Shown here: positions 1 to 17,845 of the stretch, piece after piece
Position numbering within the stretch: position 1 is the stretch's first letter
How the letters are laid out: the number at the start of each line of letters is the position of its first letter
Assembly: GCA_016929235.1 (NCBI GenBank)
Contig: JAFGJD010000005.1
Location: 27,810-91,809, forward strand
Direction of reading: 5' to 3'
Length of the DNA stretch: 64,000 bases
Origin: Candidatus Babeliales bacterium
GTDB taxonomy: Bacteria; Babelota; Babeliae; Babelales; JABCYS01
Program-made: the position numbers and the translations under genes
Notes under the pieces: model-generated
The model's database searches: none
The model's input: the letters and a program-made list of their open reading frames with translations, nothing else
What the model was told of the DNA's origin: nothing

Positions 1-273
1 ATAGATGTTGTTGATCGTGTTGGTGAAGAGTTTGAAGATGATGGGGAAACATCTTCTGTAGTACAGTTTATGAACTATGCTCTTCCGTTTACGATTTTGG
101 GACTTAATGTTTTGATAGCATGTGTTCTTCTTAGAGAAAAGAGAGGTCTGGAAAAAGTTGGGAAGGCATTAAAAAGGGCGGACACCGAAGTTACAACACA
201 TATGAATGCATGTGCTCGTAAGGTTGGTGAAGTTAGAGAACAGATTAGCCAAGAGCATGTAGGAGAGTCATGA
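1..273 (+). CDS. single-pass membrane protein, 5'-truncated by the window edge (member of the tandem family)
   Basis: Frame 1 is open from nt 1 to TGA 271-273. TM helix ALPFTILGLNVLIACVLL is followed by a basic tail REKRGLEKVGKALKR. The stop overlaps the next start in ATGA. Confidence 0.55.
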   Translation: MDVVDRVGEEFEDDGETSSVVQFMNYALPFTILGLNVLIACVLLREKRGLEKVGKALKRADTEVTTHMNACARKVGEVREQISQEHVGES

Positions 274-920
274 TGAATAAATTTCTCACGTATGTAATTT
301 GTTTTAGTCTTACTTTTTCATGTGCGGCTTCAACACGTAGACAACCTCGATCTAGTGAGCTGGTACCGCTGATTTCAAGCGCTGCAGGAGGATTACTTGT
401 TGCAGTTAATCTCGTGTTGTTGCACCGTGTTCGGCATAGCCGAAGATGGGTTAACAAAGTAATAAAGGATGGCAAGAATCATCAAGCACAAGCTATTCGT
501 GGCTTAAAATACGAGGTGAGGCAGTTGTCTATGACTGATGAGATGAGCGAATCAGGCGAAGAACAGCCGTTGAAGGCTATAACAGAGGGTGAGGTTGTGC
601 AGCAAGAACAATCTATGCCAACAGCTGAACCAGCACCAGAGGAACAAGCTGGTGGTGCGGCGGTTGATCCGCAAGCATTATGGCAAGGGTTTGTATACCA
701 AGAATGTAATCCGTATTGGGATCCGTATGGGTTCTGGCCATGGCAGTGGGTGCAACAATGGTGGCAGGGTCAACAGCAATGGGAGGCATACCAACAACAA
801 CAGGCCGCAGTATATTGGCAGCAATATCAGCAGCAATTATTCCAGCAGCAACAACAGATGGCTGCTCTCGTAGATCAGGCGGCGAGGGGATGCGTTGACG
901 CTGAACGGGGGACAGAATGA
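270..920 (+). CDS. signal peptide + TM protein with Gln/Trp-rich C-terminal tail (tandem family)
   Basis: 216 aa. Signal-like N-terminus MMNKFLTYVICFSLTFSCAAS, TM GGLLVAVNLVLL, basic stretch HRVRHSRRW, and a GLKYEVR motif shared with neighbours. ATGA overlaps at both ends. Confidence 0.7.
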   Translation: MMNKFLTYVICFSLTFSCAASTRRQPRSSELVPLISSAAGGLLVAVNLVLLHRVRHSRRWVNKVIKDGKNHQAQAIRGLKYEVRQLSMTDEMSESGEEQPLKAITEGEVVQQEQSMPTAEPAPEEQAGGAAVDPQALWQGFVYQECNPYWDPYGFWPWQWVQQWWQGQQQWEAYQQQQAAVYWQQYQQQLFQQQQQMAALVDQAARGCVDAERGTE

Positions 921-1324
921 AACTAAGATTTCTGGTACTGTCACTTTTATGTATGAGTCTACTCCATGCCCCTACACAACCAGAGCCAACTATTAATGAA
1001 ACAAGCGCAGAGCAAGAGACTACATCTGAATCATGGACGGCGAATCCATGGGTTGTGCCGTTGTGCCTGTCGGGTGTTGTTGCAGTGTTGATTGGTGATT
1101 TGAGTGTTGCAGTCTGGCGTACGCATACCATGGTAAATAAATTGAAGTATGAACGAAGAAGTATGCAAAAACTGGGGGGAAAATTTGCGATGGCTGCTCG
1201 GTATTATGCCCGAAGAGGTCATCATCAATTGCCTGTTCGGGTTTCTCGCAAAAAACGGCGATCAAAGCCTGGCGGTAGACCAGCTTCAACGGAGCCGTTG
1301 GACGCTGGTCGTGAAACTGAATAG
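917..1324 (+). CDS. signal peptide + TM protein (tandem family)
   Basis: 135 aa. Signal MKLRFLVLSLLCMSLLHA, TM VVPLCLSGVVAVLIGDLSVAV, then a KLKYERR motif and a basic tail. The start overlaps the previous stop (ATGA). Confidence 0.7.
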   Translation: MKLRFLVLSLLCMSLLHAPTQPEPTINETSAEQETTSESWTANPWVVPLCLSGVVAVLIGDLSVAVWRTHTMVNKLKYERRSMQKLGGKFAMAARYYARRGHHQLPVRVSRKKRRSKPGGRPASTEPLDAGRETE

Positions 1325-1349
1325 CATTACTTAGCAAAAAGGGGCATGT

Positions 1350-2165
1350 GTGAAGCATTATAAGCTTATTGGGTTAATCGTGTCGTTGGGAACGATGACA
1401 CTTCTTGCAGAGCCTGTCGATATACGAGTAAATCAAGAGCTGCAGCGCTCTGAACAAGCGGATGGTTGGTGGAGGTCGTTTCTTGCACCTTGGGCACCGG
1501 CAGGGGCATTGTGTGCAGTTGTTTTGGTTGCTACAGCGGTTATGGCAGGCAGGCTGCAGAGCCAATCTGAGAAATTTGGAAGAGCAGCGCAAAGTTTTCG
1601 AAAAGATCAGGCAAAAGCTCGTTCGGTAACAGGTATGGCATACACCGTATCTGCAAAAGTCTTCAAGGCGTTGAAGCAAGAGCGAGAGCGAGCCGAAAGA
1701 CGAGAGCGAACATATTTACGCTTCATTGAAGAGGAAAGAAGCAGGAAGTCGGGTGATGATATGGCGCATGTCCTTACGGGAGGTCAAGATGATGAAGCCG
1801 AGGTGGGCCCTGAGGCGCTTGATGAACTTGAAAAACAGCTTGAAGAACTTATGCGGCGCCAACTTATTGCCATAGATCGCCCGAGGGCAGGTGAACTAGG
1901 TGCCGATGTAATACATCAGGATATTATCGCCACCATGGAGGCTTTGGCCGAAGCCGAGTTAAAAGCATTGGAGGAGGGTGGTGATTCATCGGAGTGGGAC
2001 CAATATTCACCTGGAGCAGCTGGTGGTCCTGAGCCTAAACCGATTCGTGGTCCTGGTGATATTGCCCCGAGGCAAACGCCGGCCCTTGTAATGAATTCTG
2101 AAGCCGCCCTTGAGTTGAAACAAGGACGAGCCGCTTATCAAGATGGTCAATTAGAAAGCATTTAG
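1350..2165 (+). CDS. signal peptide + TM protein with charged coiled-coil tail (tandem family)
   Basis: 271 aa. GTG start with a purine-rich stretch AAAAAGGGG upstream. Signal MKHYKLIGLIVSLGTMTLLA, TM ALCAVVLVATAVMAG, and an E/R/K-rich helical C-terminus. Confidence 0.65.
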   Translation: MKHYKLIGLIVSLGTMTLLAEPVDIRVNQELQRSEQADGWWRSFLAPWAPAGALCAVVLVATAVMAGRLQSQSEKFGRAAQSFRKDQAKARSVTGMAYTVSAKVFKALKQERERAERRERTYLRFIEEERSRKSGDDMAHVLTGGQDDEAEVGPEALDELEKQLEELMRRQLIAIDRPRAGELGADVIHQDIIATMEALAEAELKALEEGGDSSEWDQYSPGAAGGPEPKPIRGPGDIAPRQTPALVMNSEAALELKQGRAAYQDGQLESI

Positions 2166-9546: not shown

Positions 9547-9738
9547 TTAGGCTTTCTTTTTTGACACCCGGCGGCGTTTTTTGGCTGTTTTGCGCTTGGT
9601 GGTCTTACGCTTTGCAGTTTTACGGCGAGTTGTTTTACGCTTAACTGTCTTGCGCTTTGTCGTTTTACGCTTGGTGGTTTTGCGCTTAACTGTCTTGCGC
9701 TTTGCCGTCTTGCGCTTTGCTGTTTTTCTCTTCTTCAT
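9547..9738 (-). CDS. small highly basic KRKTx-repeat protein (histone H1/Hc-like composition)
   Basis: 63 aa from ATG 9738 (AAGGAG 5 nt upstream). MK + 10 x (K/R)RKT(A/V/T) + KKRRRVSKKKA. The ORF track starts at 9777. Confidence 0.7.
   Translation of the reverse strand: MKKRKTAKRKTAKRKTVKRKTTKRKTTKRKTVKRKTTRRKTAKRKTTKRKTAKKRRRVSKKKA
9583..9732 (-). repeat. 10 tandem 15-nt coding repeats (KRKTx units)
   Basis: 15-nt periodicity is visible in the DNA (cttgcgctt.. / ttttacgctt.. units). It encodes KRKTA KRKTA KRKTV KRKTT KRKTT KRKTV KRKTT RRKTA KRKTT KRKTA. Confidence 0.85.
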
Positions 9739-9846
9739 TACGGGCTCCTTAGAATGAGGTTGGAGATATACCATCAATTTAAAGATACAAGTTGTACGTC
9801 AAAAAAAGCAATAGTTGTGCAATAAATTTCTTATACAGATACGAAT

Positions 9847-11620: not shown

Positions 11621-13180
11621 TTAAATATAGCTTGCCATAGCTGTATCTGCTTGTGAGGCTTTTTCTCGTTCGATCGTCTCCAGAATTGCTGTCGTACTGA
11701 TAGCTGTGCTTCTGCTGGTCCTCATCATTCGAAGGGATTTAAGCACGACACCTGCAATTGTTCTTCCAGAAAAACCGTCCATCTGTTCTGAGAATTCATT
11801 GAGGTGCTCAAGAACATCTTCCTCAACAGGAATCTCTCTTCGTTCTGCAAATTTTTTAAGATGGAGTTCAAAGATGCGTTTGCGTTCATCATGACCAGGA
11901 AGCGGAAACTCAACCTTTTCACCGACACGGTCCATAACTGCTCGATCAAGTAAGTTTGGCATGTTAGTTGCAAATACAAACATGATGTTGTCTGAAGCTT
12001 GGCCAGTTACCTGTGATAAGAATGCATCGGTTAGTTTTTTAGAACGCTCGCTGACATTTGGATTGGAGCGACTTGCCAAAAATGTTTCTGCTTCGTCGAC
12101 AAAAACAACAAGCGGGCGACGGCTTGTCTTCGCCCATTCAAAGAATGAGTGAAGCTGTGTAATATCATCTCCTGGTTTGAACTGTGAAAAGTCCGCACCA
12201 GATAAAATTGCGTAGTCACATTCGGAGTATTCCGCGAGTGCTTTTGCAAACATGGTTTTACCGGTTCCCGGAGGCCCATAAAACAGTACGTTCATAAGTG
12301 GGTCGCCATTAGCGTGTGCTTCTTTAGTAGAATCGGCAATTTCCATCAAAAGAGCTTCTTTTTCTGGTCTGAGCACAACGTCCAAGATGCCATTTGATTC
12401 TGGTTTATTGACGACAGTGTGCCACCAACTTGAAAGCAGCGTTTCTCGTGATGATTCTCGAACAAGTTGTGGTTGTCCAAGTCGGGCGCCAACATATTCA
12501 GCAAGGACTTTGGACATTTCTTTTGCTCCATAAATACCTGCAAACGTTGCGACGATAGCCCCAGAAAACAACATGAGGGTTCGTGGTTGACGGATATATT
12601 GTAGCGTCGCTAGATAGCGTTGGTTAGCCCCATGTTGTTCTTGGTGTGCTCGAACCGCAGCTTCGCGCAAGCGAGCCCCTGCGTTGGCTTGATCACGTAG
12701 AATATCGCGGCTAAGTTGTCCAAATTCTTCAAATTGTTGCACTGCGATGTCGGCACCTGATCGTTGGAATCCTCTAAGTTCATCTTCCAAAGCTCTAATT
12801 TGGCGATCTAATCTTTGTGCCTCTATATCATCCCGACGGTGCAAGGCTTGGATGTGCTGTGTTCTAAGTGCAGCTATAGTCTCTTCCAATCTTCTTATTC
12901 TGTCTCGATTATTGCGTCGATTTTCTTCTTGTAGCTGCTGGAGTGCGTGTCCAGCACCTTCGACAACCTCTCCCATCATTACTCCAAACGCGCGTGCATT
13001 TCGAGTAATCCATGCTGGGACTTGCCAGCCTGCACCATCTTCGGCTTGCGCTGCTCGAGGCTGTCCGCCTTGTTGCATGCCTTGTACAAGACCTAGGAGC
13101 TGTTGGAAATCTTCCATCGCATGCATTGATGGTATGCTGACTAGGAAAGAAAAAAATAAACAGTATTTACGGTTTATCAT
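11621..13180 (-). CDS. membrane AAA+ ATPase with N-terminal coiled coil, ATAD3-like
   Basis: 519 aa. Signal-like MINRKYCLFFSFLVSIPSMHA, R/E/Q coiled coil, TM LMLFSGAIVATFAGIYGA, Walker A GPPGTGKT, Walker B VVFVDEA. The linker ARLGQPQLVRESSR and AAA blocks resemble ATAD3 as I recall it. Confidence 0.75.
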   Translation of the reverse strand: MINRKYCLFFSFLVSIPSMHAMEDFQQLLGLVQGMQQGGQPRAAQAEDGAGWQVPAWITRNARAFGVMMGEVVEGAGHALQQLQEENRRNNRDRIRRLEETIAALRTQHIQALHRRDDIEAQRLDRQIRALEDELRGFQRSGADIAVQQFEEFGQLSRDILRDQANAGARLREAAVRAHQEQHGANQRYLATLQYIRQPRTLMLFSGAIVATFAGIYGAKEMSKVLAEYVGARLGQPQLVRESSRETLLSSWWHTVVNKPESNGILDVVLRPEKEALLMEIADSTKEAHANGDPLMNVLFYGPPGTGKTMFAKALAEYSECDYAILSGADFSQFKPGDDITQLHSFFEWAKTSRRPLVVFVDEAETFLASRSNPNVSERSKKLTDAFLSQVTGQASDNIMFVFATNMPNLLDRAVMDRVGEKVEFPLPGHDERKRIFELHLKKFAERREIPVEEDVLEHLNEFSEQMDGFSGRTIAGVVLKSLRMMRTSRSTAISTTAILETIEREKASQADTAMASYI

Positions 13181-13195
13181 TAAAGCTCCTTATGA

Positions 13196-14590
13196 TTATC
13201 TTCGTGCTTGATTTATTACTAGTTTAATTACTCTATACGCGCCATAACAGTAGATTCCCAAAAAACAAAGCGCTGGAAAATGCAGAGTTCTATTGGTTAC
13301 CCAGTTTGTATACCAACTACATAGATTGCGTGACAAAAGATTATGTACTTCATGACTTGTCTCAATATATGCTCTTAGTGCAAGATCAGTCTCTTGAAGC
13401 TCTTTTATAGCCTCGTGTGTTGGATTGTGGTGAACCTTTTCGCGTGCATTATGATAGTTTTCTAAAACAAGATAGAACTCAAACCGTGTTGCTATTGCCT
13501 CAGTTACCCACATGCGGAGATACAGCGCTGAAATCATGTTTGCGACCATCATCAGAGAAAGATATTTAGCACAGAGAATAGCTGGTTTTGAGTACAGCCA
13601 CGATAAGCGGGGTGGGATTAAAAATGACAAGAGCGTAGGTAATATTTTTTCGCGTTGTTCTTCTATAGTGTCATTGATTACATTCATTTCGCCTACGCGA
13701 GATCCAAGCATGCGAAGTCGTTGTATAACTGAAGGAAGAGTTAAAATATTTTGTATGTTGCGATCGGTAGTGAGCCAGGCCAATCTGTGGGTTGGGAGCA
13801 TTAATATGAAATTGAGTATTGGATGTTTAATAAAACTGGTAAGCCATTGTGTAGTTGTTCCTAATCCAAGCGGCCGTTGCTCTTGTGATACTTCGAGCTG
13901 CCCTTCGGCGTTCTTTTTATAAATACACCATGAACGTGGATTCAATGGCTCATTTGCTAATGAGGATCGTCGCCAAGCGGGCAGGTATTCATTTGCGCTA
14001 ATGACACCAGCAAGAGCAAACATGGTTTTTGGTGTTCTAACGTTATGCAGCGGCATCTCTAGAAGATTAAAGAATCTGGTAAATTCACTAGCTAAGAAGG
14101 AAGAGCATGCCAGAGAATAAGGATCTTTTGCGATAAACAACATATCACTTGCAATATGTTTGAGGAGGTCCATCATTTCAGTGGTATGTTTTGTACATAC
14201 TTGATACACATGCTCAACTTGCTGGCTTTGAATTGTCTTTAGAAGCATGACATCTGCGGCAAGTAAGCCGGTAAATTCTGTCATGTAGACAAGATCTTTG
14301 TTATAGACTCCCACGGCAGGGAGGCCTAGGGGGAGTTTCATCTGACCGCGCAATGTATTTTGCCACATGATTTGGGCATTGCGCTGGTCGCGTTGTTCTT
14401 TAAAAAATGCAGGAAGATCTTGGTTGGTAAGTTGTTGTGCTTGTTCTATCGTTGCTGGAATATTTGCTACGGCATTGTTGAGTGCTTCCATATCAATCTG
14501 AACATCAAGTGCAGGTCCACCTTCTTGTGCGCAACATTCTGCGACAAGAAATAAAAACATAAAAAAAATCTTTACAGTGCGGTGAATCAT
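13196..14590 (-). CDS. hypothetical envelope protein (signal peptide, C-terminal TM)
   Basis: 464 aa. Signal MIHRTVKIFFMFLFLVAECCAQ. C-terminal hydrophobic helix LHFPALCFLGIYCYGAY. Lies 15 nt upstream of the AAA+ gene on the same strand. No family recognised. Confidence 0.6.
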   Translation of the reverse strand: MIHRTVKIFFMFLFLVAECCAQEGGPALDVQIDMEALNNAVANIPATIEQAQQLTNQDLPAFFKEQRDQRNAQIMWQNTLRGQMKLPLGLPAVGVYNKDLVYMTEFTGLLAADVMLLKTIQSQQVEHVYQVCTKHTTEMMDLLKHIASDMLFIAKDPYSLACSSFLASEFTRFFNLLEMPLHNVRTPKTMFALAGVISANEYLPAWRRSSLANEPLNPRSWCIYKKNAEGQLEVSQEQRPLGLGTTTQWLTSFIKHPILNFILMLPTHRLAWLTTDRNIQNILTLPSVIQRLRMLGSRVGEMNVINDTIEEQREKILPTLLSFLIPPRLSWLYSKPAILCAKYLSLMMVANMISALYLRMWVTEAIATRFEFYLVLENYHNAREKVHHNPTHEAIKELQETDLALRAYIETSHEVHNLLSRNLCSWYTNWVTNRTLHFPALCFLGIYCYGAYRVIKLVINQARR

Positions 14591-16924: not shown

Positions 16925-17845
16925 TCAATCTGAGGATCCCAGATAGCGCTCAACATCAAGGGCAGCGGCGCAGCCTGAACCAGCGGACGTGATTGCCTGC
17001 CGATAACGGGCATCAGCGACATCTCCTGCAGCAAAGACTCCCTGCCGAGAGGTTAGGGTATGCTTAGTGAGCTTGATGTGCCCGTACTCGGTTAGATCGA
17101 GCTGATCCTTGAATGCCTGTGTATTAGGGGCGTGTCCTATCGCGATAAAGACCCCATCAACTTGCAGATTATGGGAAGTGTTGGTTTTTTGGTTAGTGAT
17201 AGTTGCTCCAGTGACTCGTTGACCATTGCCGCTGATTTTGGTGACTGTGCTGTTATAGATAATGGTGATGTCCTGATGTTCCTTGACTCTGATTTGCATT
17301 GCATGGGATGCGGTCAACTTATCCTCAATTTGAACGATCGTGATTTTGTTGGTGAACTTAGTCATGAATAAGGCATCTTCCATAGCAGTATCACCACCGC
17401 CAACGATTACTACCGGTTGATTTTTATAGAATGCGCCATCACATACAGTACAAGTTGTGACACCTTTTCCCCAGTACTCATCTTCACCGAGACAGCCAAG
17501 CCGTTTTGGTGTTGCTCCACTGGCTATAATGAGTGCTTTTGTCGTGAGCTTTTTGTCTTTATCTGTCCACAGGGTGATTGGTTGTGTGGCAAGGTCAGCT
17601 CTCGTGATGGTTGCCTGAAGGAATTCACATCCAAGATGCTGAGCATGTTCACGTATATTTTTCATGAGTGTTGGTCCGAGAATTGATTGTTCGCCAGGCC
17701 AATTTTCAACTGCAGTTGTTCCCATGAGCTGACCACCAGGTGTTGAGCCGTCGATGATGAGGGGTTTGAGATTGGCTCGTGCGGCATAGATGCCTGCAGT
17801 AAGTCCAGCAGGCCCCGAGCCAATGATGATCAATTGATGAACCAT
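16925..17845 (-). CDS. trxB: thioredoxin-disulfide reductase
   Basis: FAD motif IIGSGPAGLTAG, redox-active CTVC, NADPH motif VGGGDTAMEDA, and GVFAAGDV. Confidence 0.92.
   Translation of the reverse strand: MVHQLIIIGSGPAGLTAGIYAARANLKPLIIDGSTPGGQLMGTTAVENWPGEQSILGPTLMKNIREHAQHLGCEFLQATITRADLATQPITLWTDKDKKLTTKALIIASGATPKRLGCLGEDEYWGKGVTTCTVCDGAFYKNQPVVIVGGGDTAMEDALFMTKFTNKITIVQIEDKLTASHAMQIRVKEHQDITIIYNSTVTKISGNGQRVTGATITNQKTNTSHNLQVDGVFIAIGHAPNTQAFKDQLDLTEYGHIKLTKHTLTSRQGVFAAGDVADARYRQAITSAGSGCAAALDVERYLGSSD

Follow-up and report, generated by a model that had tools for sequence, protein, structure and literature searches.

ATAD3 is essential in animals, and mutations in it occur in human neurological disease; how it works is poorly understood. 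To our knowledge it is usually called eukaryote-specific, and we know of no description of a bacterial ancestor. The protein is nuclear-encoded and resides in the mitochondrial inner membrane with its N-terminus towards the outer membrane; ATAD3A exposes its coiled coils to the intermembrane space and its ATPase to the matrix (PMC10419812). The review that describes this topology does not mention bacteria or prokaryotes, and the ATAD3 phylogeny paper covers only animals, plants and protists (PMC3790746). The present work concerns a gene pair in a 64,000-nucleotide stretch of contig JAFGJD010000005.1 (the whole stretch analysed, hereafter the window) from a Candidatus Babeliales bacterium. At 11621..14590 on the minus strand, which carries all parts of the pair described below, a gene for a 464-amino-acid partner protein is followed by a gene for a 519-amino-acid AAA+ ATPase. 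Judged by sequence comparison, this ATPase is a bacterial member of the ATAD3 lineage in its transmembrane helix, its linker and its ATPase module with lid, and we hold both its family identity and its conserved pairing with the partner with high confidence. The Babeliales belong to Candidatus Babelota, also named Dependentiae or TM6, which live as obligate parasites inside protist cells (PMC6561590, PMC4378268). No paper linking ATAD3 with Dependentiae, TM6 or Babela was found in the literature searched, and the Dependentiae genome papers examined do not mention ATAD3.

The window ATPase and eukaryotic ATAD3, which comprises ATAD3A/B of animals and the ATAD3/SHOT1-binding ATPases of plants, have the same order of parts, namely a helical outer domain, a transmembrane helix, a linker of the form LGxPxLVRE(S/T)SR and an AAA+ module with lid. 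The expected orientation is also the same: the ATPase faces the matrix or cytoplasm and the outer domain the intermembrane space or periplasm, following the topology of ATAD3A (PMC10419812). The bacterial gene differs in its setting: it lies in an operon with a Shine-Dalgarno sequence, an N-terminal signal peptide and a dedicated upstream partner gene, in a Babeliales genome, among thrS, nth, PIN-PhoH, rnpA, trxB and tig. The proteins differ as well, in that the helical outer domain of the bacterial protein is the shorter of the two and shows no detectable homology to its counterpart, the bacterial pore loop reads SGADFSQFKxG whereas that of ATAD3 reads TGGDVAPLG with a one-residue deletion, and many bacterial members carry an -Ala-Ala C-terminus. 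The alignments and profiles presented below indicate that ATAD3 has a bacterial sister family, not described in the literature searched, which is an ancient and true relative. The AAA lineage itself is known; what is new is its bacterial setting, the different outer domain, the export leader, the ancestral type of pore loop and the dedicated partner.

A search with the 519-amino-acid ATPase returned about 25 metagenomic or bacterial relatives first, after which all top matches were eukaryotic ATAD3 (33-35% identity over 77% of the query, with E about 1e-53). BLASTP against a plant ATAD3 gave 34% identity over 427 amino acids (E=9e-65), in an alignment that spans the transmembrane helix and the linker. 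A profile made from the bacterial relatives only scored its own members at 450 bits or above; ATAD3 proteins from an oomycete, plants, a mollusc and an insect came next, scoring 345-357 bits, and no other bacterial AAA family ranked between the two groups. By all three routes, then, ATAD3 is the nearest family beyond the bacterial relatives, as the original prediction had proposed from blocks of ATAD3 sequence. Those blocks are real: in a mollusc ATAD3 (P0098) they stand in register with the window ATPase, almost letter for letter. The further expectation of a match to the ATAD3-specific N-terminal family held for one part only. The bacterial and eukaryotic profiles of the transmembrane helix and linker, compared by hhalign over 52 columns, matched with a probability of 99.6% (E=3.7e-24), whereas for the helical N-terminal domain no homology to the eukaryotic N-terminus was detected (hhalign probability 0.3%). 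Because that domain is without such homology, the Pfam model ATAD3_N (PF12037) scores only 17.8 bits on the ATPase against a cut-off of 25, and covers profile positions 119-265 at the end of the model. Several relatives are already labelled 'ATPase family AAA domain-containing protein 3A/B' by the JGI pipeline.

These results decide against the reading that the ATPase is a generic bacterial AAA+ protein, whose resemblance to ATAD3 would lie in motifs common to all classical AAA ATPases. Such a reading could draw on the ATAD3_N score below the Pfam cut-off and on the matches in PDB and NCBIfam, which are CDC48, PAN and FtsH; however, the PDB copy searched contains no solved ATAD3 structure, so that there was none to match. 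The likeness also extends for about 65 residues ahead of the AAA module, through the transmembrane helix and linker, and the 345-357 bits of ATAD3 on the bacterial profile compare with 77-91 bits for the best NCBIfam AAA models on the window protein. The best matches are thus not ordinary bacterial AAA+ clades, since ATAD3 follows directly upon the bacterial relatives, and the plant ATAD3 alignment, the comparison of transmembrane and linker profiles and the bacterial-only profile together refute the generic reading, which we regard as hardly credible. An anti-phage defence system was likewise rejected: the PADLOC matches of the ATPase are only generic AAA (IetA, 79.5 bits; TRIP13, 64.5 bits) and the partner has none. 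Viral contigs yielded only generic AAA matches, at 24-27% identity.

The ATPase gene (11621..13180) was delineated from its open reading frame (ORF), Pfam, the homology searches and an AlphaFold2 model, and the hydrophobic N-terminus, single transmembrane helix and single AAA+ module with Walker A and Walker B that had been claimed for its product were all located by hydrophobicity, Pfam and alignment. Residues 1-21 (13118..13180; MINRKYCLFFSFLVSIPSMHA) form a signal-peptide-like N-terminus by hydrophobicity, with a borderline value of 1.93 for the hydrophobic 12-residue window; a value of at least 2.0 is reached by 69 of 87 full-length bacterial relatives compared to 6 of 26 eukaryotic ATAD3 proteins. 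There follows an ectodomain, residues 22-198 (12587..13117), which model and composition indicate to be helical and rich in Q, A and R (14%, 14% and 13% of residues 22-195), and which would by inference be periplasmic. In the AlphaFold2 model it consists of two long helices, which span residues 56-114 and 118-196, and the alignment with the bacterial relative P0002 runs from residue 36 on. The single transmembrane segment is TLMLFSGAIVATFAGIYGA, residues 201-219 (12524..12580; Kyte-Doolittle 1.62). It is followed by the juxtamembrane motif LGQPQLVRESSR, residues 234-245 (12446..12481), which is common to ATAD3 in the hhalign comparison and in which P237 is invariant.

The AAA+ module with its lid occupies residues 263-505 (11666..12394), as judged from Pfam AAA (PF00004), which matches at residues 298-427 (E=2e-25), and from the structural neighbours. 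Its catalytic motifs are intact in the alignment, being invariant or nearly so: Walker A GPPGTGKT (residues 302-309; 12254..12277), in which K308 does not vary among the 96 bacterial and 37 eukaryotic relatives; Walker B VVFVDEAE (residues 358-365; 12086..12109), with D362 and E363 invariant; and, in the second region of homology, the putative arginine finger R418 (11927..11929), which is invariant in 138/138 aligned sequences. Sensor-1 N406 and R473 are likewise conserved. The pore-loop-1 region FSQFKPG, placed by the alignment of relatives, covers residues 331-337 (12170..12190). In the AlphaFold2 monomer model the mean pLDDT (predicted local distance difference test) is 80.6 and exceeds 94 in the AAA module, and the order of parts is leader, the two long helices, a membrane-crossing helix at 199-234, AAA module and lid. 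The best Foldseek neighbours are the membrane-anchored FtsHi and FtsH motors (320-348 columns), followed by Rpt, Yme1, AFG3L2 and p97.

Two features of the family at large may be recorded here. Among the 96 bacterial ATAD3-like proteins, 22 end in -Ala-Ala and 38 in -Ala (for example P0013, P0016, P0017, P0018 and P0189), while alanine makes up only 9.5% of residues and just one of 37 eukaryotic ATAD3 proteins ends in -Ala-Ala. Such ends resemble an ssrA-type C-terminal degradation tag; the window ATPase lacks it and ends in MASYI. In the lid region equivalent to window residues 433-469, the bacterial relatives fall into two length classes of about 37 and about 51 residues, of which the window protein belongs to the shorter, whereas eukaryotic ATAD3 is variable, mostly of at least 43 residues, and the outgroups have about 30. 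This may mark the branching order.

FtsH and the FtsHi proteins of the chloroplast Ycf2 complex are likewise membrane-anchored classical AAA+ proteins, in which an extracytoplasmic domain and a transmembrane helix precede the ATPase; if the leader of the window ATPase is left uncleaved, its topology would be identical to that of FtsH (transmembrane helix, periplasmic domain, transmembrane helix, AAA). Unlike FtsH, however, the window ATPase ends at residue 519, 14 residues past the lid, and is without an M41 protease domain; Peptidase_M41 is not found among the best 25 of 27 matching Pfam families (E up to 1). Its sequence is also much closer to ATAD3 than to FtsH, for which the NCBIfam model reaches 77 bits where its cut-off demands 600. 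Msp1/ATAD1 and Bcs1, which act as mitochondrial extractases or translocases, also combine a single AAA+ module with an N-terminal transmembrane anchor and offer a possible working model, although neither Bcs1_N nor any other family-specific Pfam model matches among the same best 25 families.

The two-gene arrangement is defined by the common strand, the 15-nucleotide gap and a gene order that recurs in related loci. Both reading frames reported by the original prediction are present, that of 519 amino acids at 11621..13180 and that of 464 at 13196..14590, as is the gap between them (13181..13195). Read from the sequence, the gap contains the Shine-Dalgarno sequence AAGGAG at 13191-13186, 5 nucleotides ahead of the ATPase ATG at 13180. 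One public gene call (P0001, 501 amino acids) starts 18 codons later and would drop the signal peptide; because the Shine-Dalgarno sequence supports the earlier start codon, the hydrophobic N-terminus is taken to belong to the 519-amino-acid ATPase. A scan for promoters and terminators found no terminator-like site between the two genes, a result that is uninformative as shuffled sequence gave more sites than the real one. The partner is 100% identical to the NCBI entry 'hypothetical protein JW872_02265 [Candidatus Babeliales bacterium]', and the locus is flanked by ordinary bacterial genes (nth, thrS, PIN-PhoH, yidD, rnpA, trxB, tig and tRNAs). Together with the Shine-Dalgarno sequence and the related loci, these sequence features identify the host of the gene pair as Candidatus Babeliales (Dependentiae/TM6). 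An assignment to the Chlamydiae, suggested by the neighbouring genes and the basic repeat protein described below, was rejected in view of the identity of the partner to the Babeliales entry.

The partner protein (13196..14590) is predicted to be all-helical and belongs to a fast-evolving family without a known domain, as defined by the family hidden Markov model (HMM) and the lack of a database match. It was described earlier as an orphan with a signal peptide, a C-terminal transmembrane segment and no recognisable domain. No match was found in Pfam, NCBIfam, PADLOC or PDB, nor any recurrent match for all 15 family members against Pfam or for the family profile against PDB, and both hydrophobic ends are seen; the label of orphan, on the other hand, has to be given up, since the protein falls within a divergent family (HMM E=1.2e-10). 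Its N-terminus, residues 1-22 (MIHRTVKIFFMFLFLVAECCAQ; 14525..14590), is signal-peptide-like with a hydrophobic 12-residue window of 2.62, and a hydrophobic N-terminus of this kind is found in 11 of 15 family members. Residues 92-100 (14291..14317) carry the conserved motif AVGVYNKDL, detected by alignment and by BLASTP to L002 and L004, two of the related loci; its family consensus is LxxGxYGxDL, with D99 invariant. Residues 436-459 (13214..13285) form a C-terminal hydrophobic segment (Kyte-Doolittle 1.57) that is followed by the basic tail KLVINQARR. The C-terminal region is conserved, and a moderately hydrophobic segment with an 'LP' motif occurs there across the family; it would serve as a membrane anchor. 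Besides the N-terminus and residues 441-459, a third hydrophobic stretch at 338-356 had escaped the earlier description. The family is very divergent, with about 15% identity to the window protein. The possibility that the partner is a split-off N-terminal half of ATAD3 was considered and rejected, as the hhalign probability is 0.04% for a match to the eukaryotic N-terminus and 0.2% for one to the bacterial N-terminal domain. Word-indexed protein searches returned two proteins with the partner profile and one new bacterial member with the bacterial ATPase profile, and have little bearing on the size of either family; the search of cluster representatives and the genome scan described below were more informative.

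The pairing of the two genes is not peculiar to the window. When one genome for each bacterial species was scanned for a motif, 19 loci emerged with 43-55% identity over a 94-residue query block, all of them in TM6/Dependentiae/Babeliales metagenome-assembled genomes (MAGs) or in poorly classified ones; none of them matches the window's own genome. The window ATPase matches the family signature [YF]A[IMV][LM]SGADF..QF (YAILSGADFSQF); against the signature E[LM]HK[LF]F[DE]W it has QLHSFFEW, with QLHS outside E[LM]HK. Eighteen of the 19 loci have an ORF of about 400-720 amino acids, on the same strand, that overlaps the ATPase start or ends at most 260 nucleotides from it (two of these ORFs are cut by a contig end). 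Sixteen of the upstream ORFs, 14 from the 19 loci and those of L002 and L004, are connected by BLAST into one family, and the HMM built from them recovers the window partner over residues 49-450 with E=1.2e-10 and 36 bits; 500 shuffled sequences reach about 3 bits at best, and the remaining window ORFs give no score. A homologue of the partner stands directly upstream of the ATPase gene in 15 of the 19 loci, and also in L001-L006 and the divergent L027, so that the survey of related genomes bears out the two-gene arrangement that had been proposed for the window. Among the loci scanned, HMM homologues of the partner occur only in this position. The short gaps or overlaps between the genes suggest translational coupling.

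Other features of these loci deserve mention. The thioredoxin reductase gene trxB lies directly downstream of the ATAD3-like gene, on the opposite strand, in seven loci (L006/L013, L008, L009, L011, L015, L024 and L026), and L010 and L022 have trxB-like ORFs of similar length at a greater distance upstream; the trxB gene of the window (16925..17845) lies about 2.3 kb beyond the start of the partner gene. This recurrent neighbour argues for a long residence of the locus in these genomes. In a Dependentiae MAG (L006, 1..3925), the gene pair comes directly after pilM-like and secretin (GspD/PilQ) genes. TM6 bacterium UASB340 has two ATAD3-like genes in one genome (L008 and L023), the first of which encodes 320 amino acids from the first ATG within an open frame of about 490 codons (37-1512); it may be full length, and the contig breaks off in its upstream region. 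In L028 (8227..10479, minus strand), two further AAA genes, of 356 and 391 amino acids, adjoin a partner-less ATAD3-like gene whose product, P0169, reaches the Pfam ATAD3_N match.

The origin of the bacterial family was approached through its pore loop and its phylogeny. A search of 1.84 billion cluster representatives yielded 700 proteins at E<=1e-30, and 96 bacterial-type and 37 eukaryote-type single-AAA proteins, mostly from the top 150 of these and some from the ATPase search and the genome scan, were placed in a neighbour-joining tree with 5 outgroup AAA domains (268 columns, 200 bootstraps), a method that is weak on long branches. The ATAD3-like proteins split from the other AAA domains in 195/200 bootstraps (97.5%). 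The eukaryote-type proteins, among them those of plants, a mollusc, a choanoflagellate, Fonticula, Reticulomyxa and a pelagophyte, form a clade with no bacterial sequences inside, weakly supported at 125/200 (62.5%), or 151/200 (75.5%) when P0149 is included; monophyly of the bacterial type is obtained in 0% of bootstraps. Two long eukaryote-type proteins on large metagenome contigs, P0188 and P0195, were considered as bacterial copies and rejected, their neighbours being eukaryotic genes. In the pore loop, F334 and G337 are each present in 79 of the 96 bacterial relatives, and G337 also in the five outgroup domains (5/5), whereas all 37 eukaryotic ATAD3 proteins have L at position 334 and lack position 337. 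The span from D330 to F347 is one residue shorter in 37/37 eukaryote-type proteins than in 5/5 outgroups and 87/96 bacterial proteins. The deletion in xGGD[VI]xPLG is found in 37/37 eukaryote-type, 0/96 bacterial-type and 0/5 outgroup sequences, and the window has SGADFSQFKPG.

The original prediction had left the choice between a host-derived transfer and a bacterial relative; the latter part stands, while a recent transfer is disfavoured by the tree and the pore-loop deletion. According to the transfer reading, the gene would derive from the ATAD3 of a protist host and would have diverged fast in the parasite. The nearest non-bacterial relatives are indeed all eukaryotic, Babela has been reported with genes acquired from eukaryotes (PMC4378268), and long branches could mask a nested position in the tree. 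Yet the eukaryote-type proteins form one clade without bacterial sequences, albeit at the modest bootstrap values given above; the bacterial family is itself deep, with 28-55% identity and two lid-length classes; and the deletion common to the eukaryote-type proteins is absent from the bacterial proteins and the outgroups. The deletion is therefore evidence against a recent host transfer, which the tree with its weak eukaryote clade does not contradict, and we consider such a transfer very improbable. On this evidence, the bacterial family keeps the ancestral pore-loop state and did not arise within crown eukaryotic ATAD3. The split between bacterial and eukaryotic ATAD3 thus appears from the sequences to be ancient, with either direction of descent. 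The ancestral loop length, together with the lack of a bacterial monophyly that excludes the eukaryotes, raises the possibility that the gene passed from a Dependentiae-like intracellular bacterium, or an extinct relative of one, to an early eukaryote before the last eukaryotic common ancestor. That mitochondrial ATAD3 may descend from such a bacterial envelope system is put forward tentatively, as a possibility that we rate below even. If true, the bacterial operon, including the partner, would show what ATAD3 originally did at a double-membrane envelope.

As for what the gene pair does, we propose, at roughly even odds, an inner-membrane AAA+ motor with a periplasmic stalk that works with a co-translated envelope partner. 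Both proteins would enter the inner membrane in an N-out, C-in orientation. An export leader and one transmembrane helix ahead of the ATPase would place the helical domain in the periplasm, whether the leader is cleaved or not, and the need for ATP would put the ATPase, presumably as a ring, on the cytoplasmic face rather than in the periplasm. The leader and C-terminal anchor of the partner imply that it is mostly periplasmic, with its short basic tail at the cytoplasmic face. Helical hairpins of about 170 residues would project into the periplasm and meet the periplasmic domain of the partner; ATP-driven movement might be relayed through the transmembrane helix and linker, or the ring might pull on a client such as the basic C-terminal tail of the partner, and the motor would thereby remodel or hold an envelope assembly. 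It would be the bacterial counterpart of ATAD3, which spans the mitochondrial inner membrane, the intermembrane space and the outer membrane. The invariant or nearly invariant catalytic residues, the aromatic residue and glycine of the pore loop and the structural neighbours FtsH and FtsHi were counted in favour of an active motor.

Several observations weigh against this envelope motor. The residue at position -3 of the ATPase leader is Met, and its cleavage is uncertain. The aromatic pore-loop residue stands one position off the canonical aromatic-hydrophobic-Gly pattern. Four of the 19 loci are without the partner, with a trxB-trx fusion upstream of the ATPase gene in L009, L024 and L026 and an unrelated low-complexity ORF in L022; therefore the ATPase can exist without a partner nearby. 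The structure prediction for the partner, made from two sequences, is unusable at a pLDDT of 34.6. In addition, Dependentiae export many host-directed proteins, with signal sequences in 44% of Chromulinavorax proteins, and Chromulinavorax reshapes host mitochondria (PMC6561590).

A close variant of the envelope motor is a protease-less membrane extractase, in which the ring, instead of acting as a structural tether, would thread membrane or periplasmic proteins and remove them from the inner membrane, as Msp1/ATAD1 does or as an FtsH stripped of its protease would; the partner would be an adaptor or the main substrate. The full-length pore loop with F334 and G337 suits such an activity, the nearest solved folds (FtsH, FtsHi, Rpt and Yme1) are unfoldase motors, the hydrophobic segment and basic tail at the end of the partner would face the ring, and the -Ala-Ala ends of 22/96 family members hint at proteolytic control. 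There is, however, no protease domain in the ATPase and no protease gene visibly linked to it, the offset of the aromatic residue counts here as well, and a large conserved periplasmic helical domain would be superfluous for simple extraction. We consider this variant unlikely, though it deserves more weight than the next. In a host-directed effector pair, both proteins would be exported and inserted in host mitochondrial membranes, where the ATPase would mimic ATAD3 and reshape the organelle. Dependentiae rely on host ATP, and Chromulinavorax is wrapped by a host mitochondrion (PMC6561590); both proteins of the pair have signal-peptide-like leaders, and with about 15% identity across its family the partner shows the fast evolution often seen in proteins at a host interface. 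A Sec leader followed by a stop-transfer transmembrane helix nevertheless predicts that the protein is kept in the inner membrane of the bacterium; moreover, the N-terminal domain that reaches the outer membrane in ATAD3 is not conserved, the family is no recent copy of a host gene, and the locus lies among housekeeping genes with a conserved trxB linkage. The effector reading thus appears to us improbable, and the envelope motor remains the preferred one.

Elsewhere in the window, a 76-amino-acid ORF between nth and thrS (9547..9777, minus strand) consists almost entirely of 'KRKT[AVT]' pentapeptide repeats; its DNA repeats in tandem with a period of 15/45, and the product looks basic in the manner of histone H1. 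At the window start (1..2000), both the G+C content (GC, 0.473) and the GC skew (0.23) are above those of the rest, and no Rfam family matches in this region.

The bacterial family supplies a simpler, operon-encoded system in which the role of the transmembrane-linker-AAA core at a two-membrane envelope may be approached, together with a candidate partner protein. It is also a test case for the origin of a mitochondrial inner-membrane protein that has no alphaproteobacterial relatives. For the Dependentiae themselves, obligate parasites that live against host mitochondria, the gene pair provides a lead on how they build their envelope or their interface with the host.

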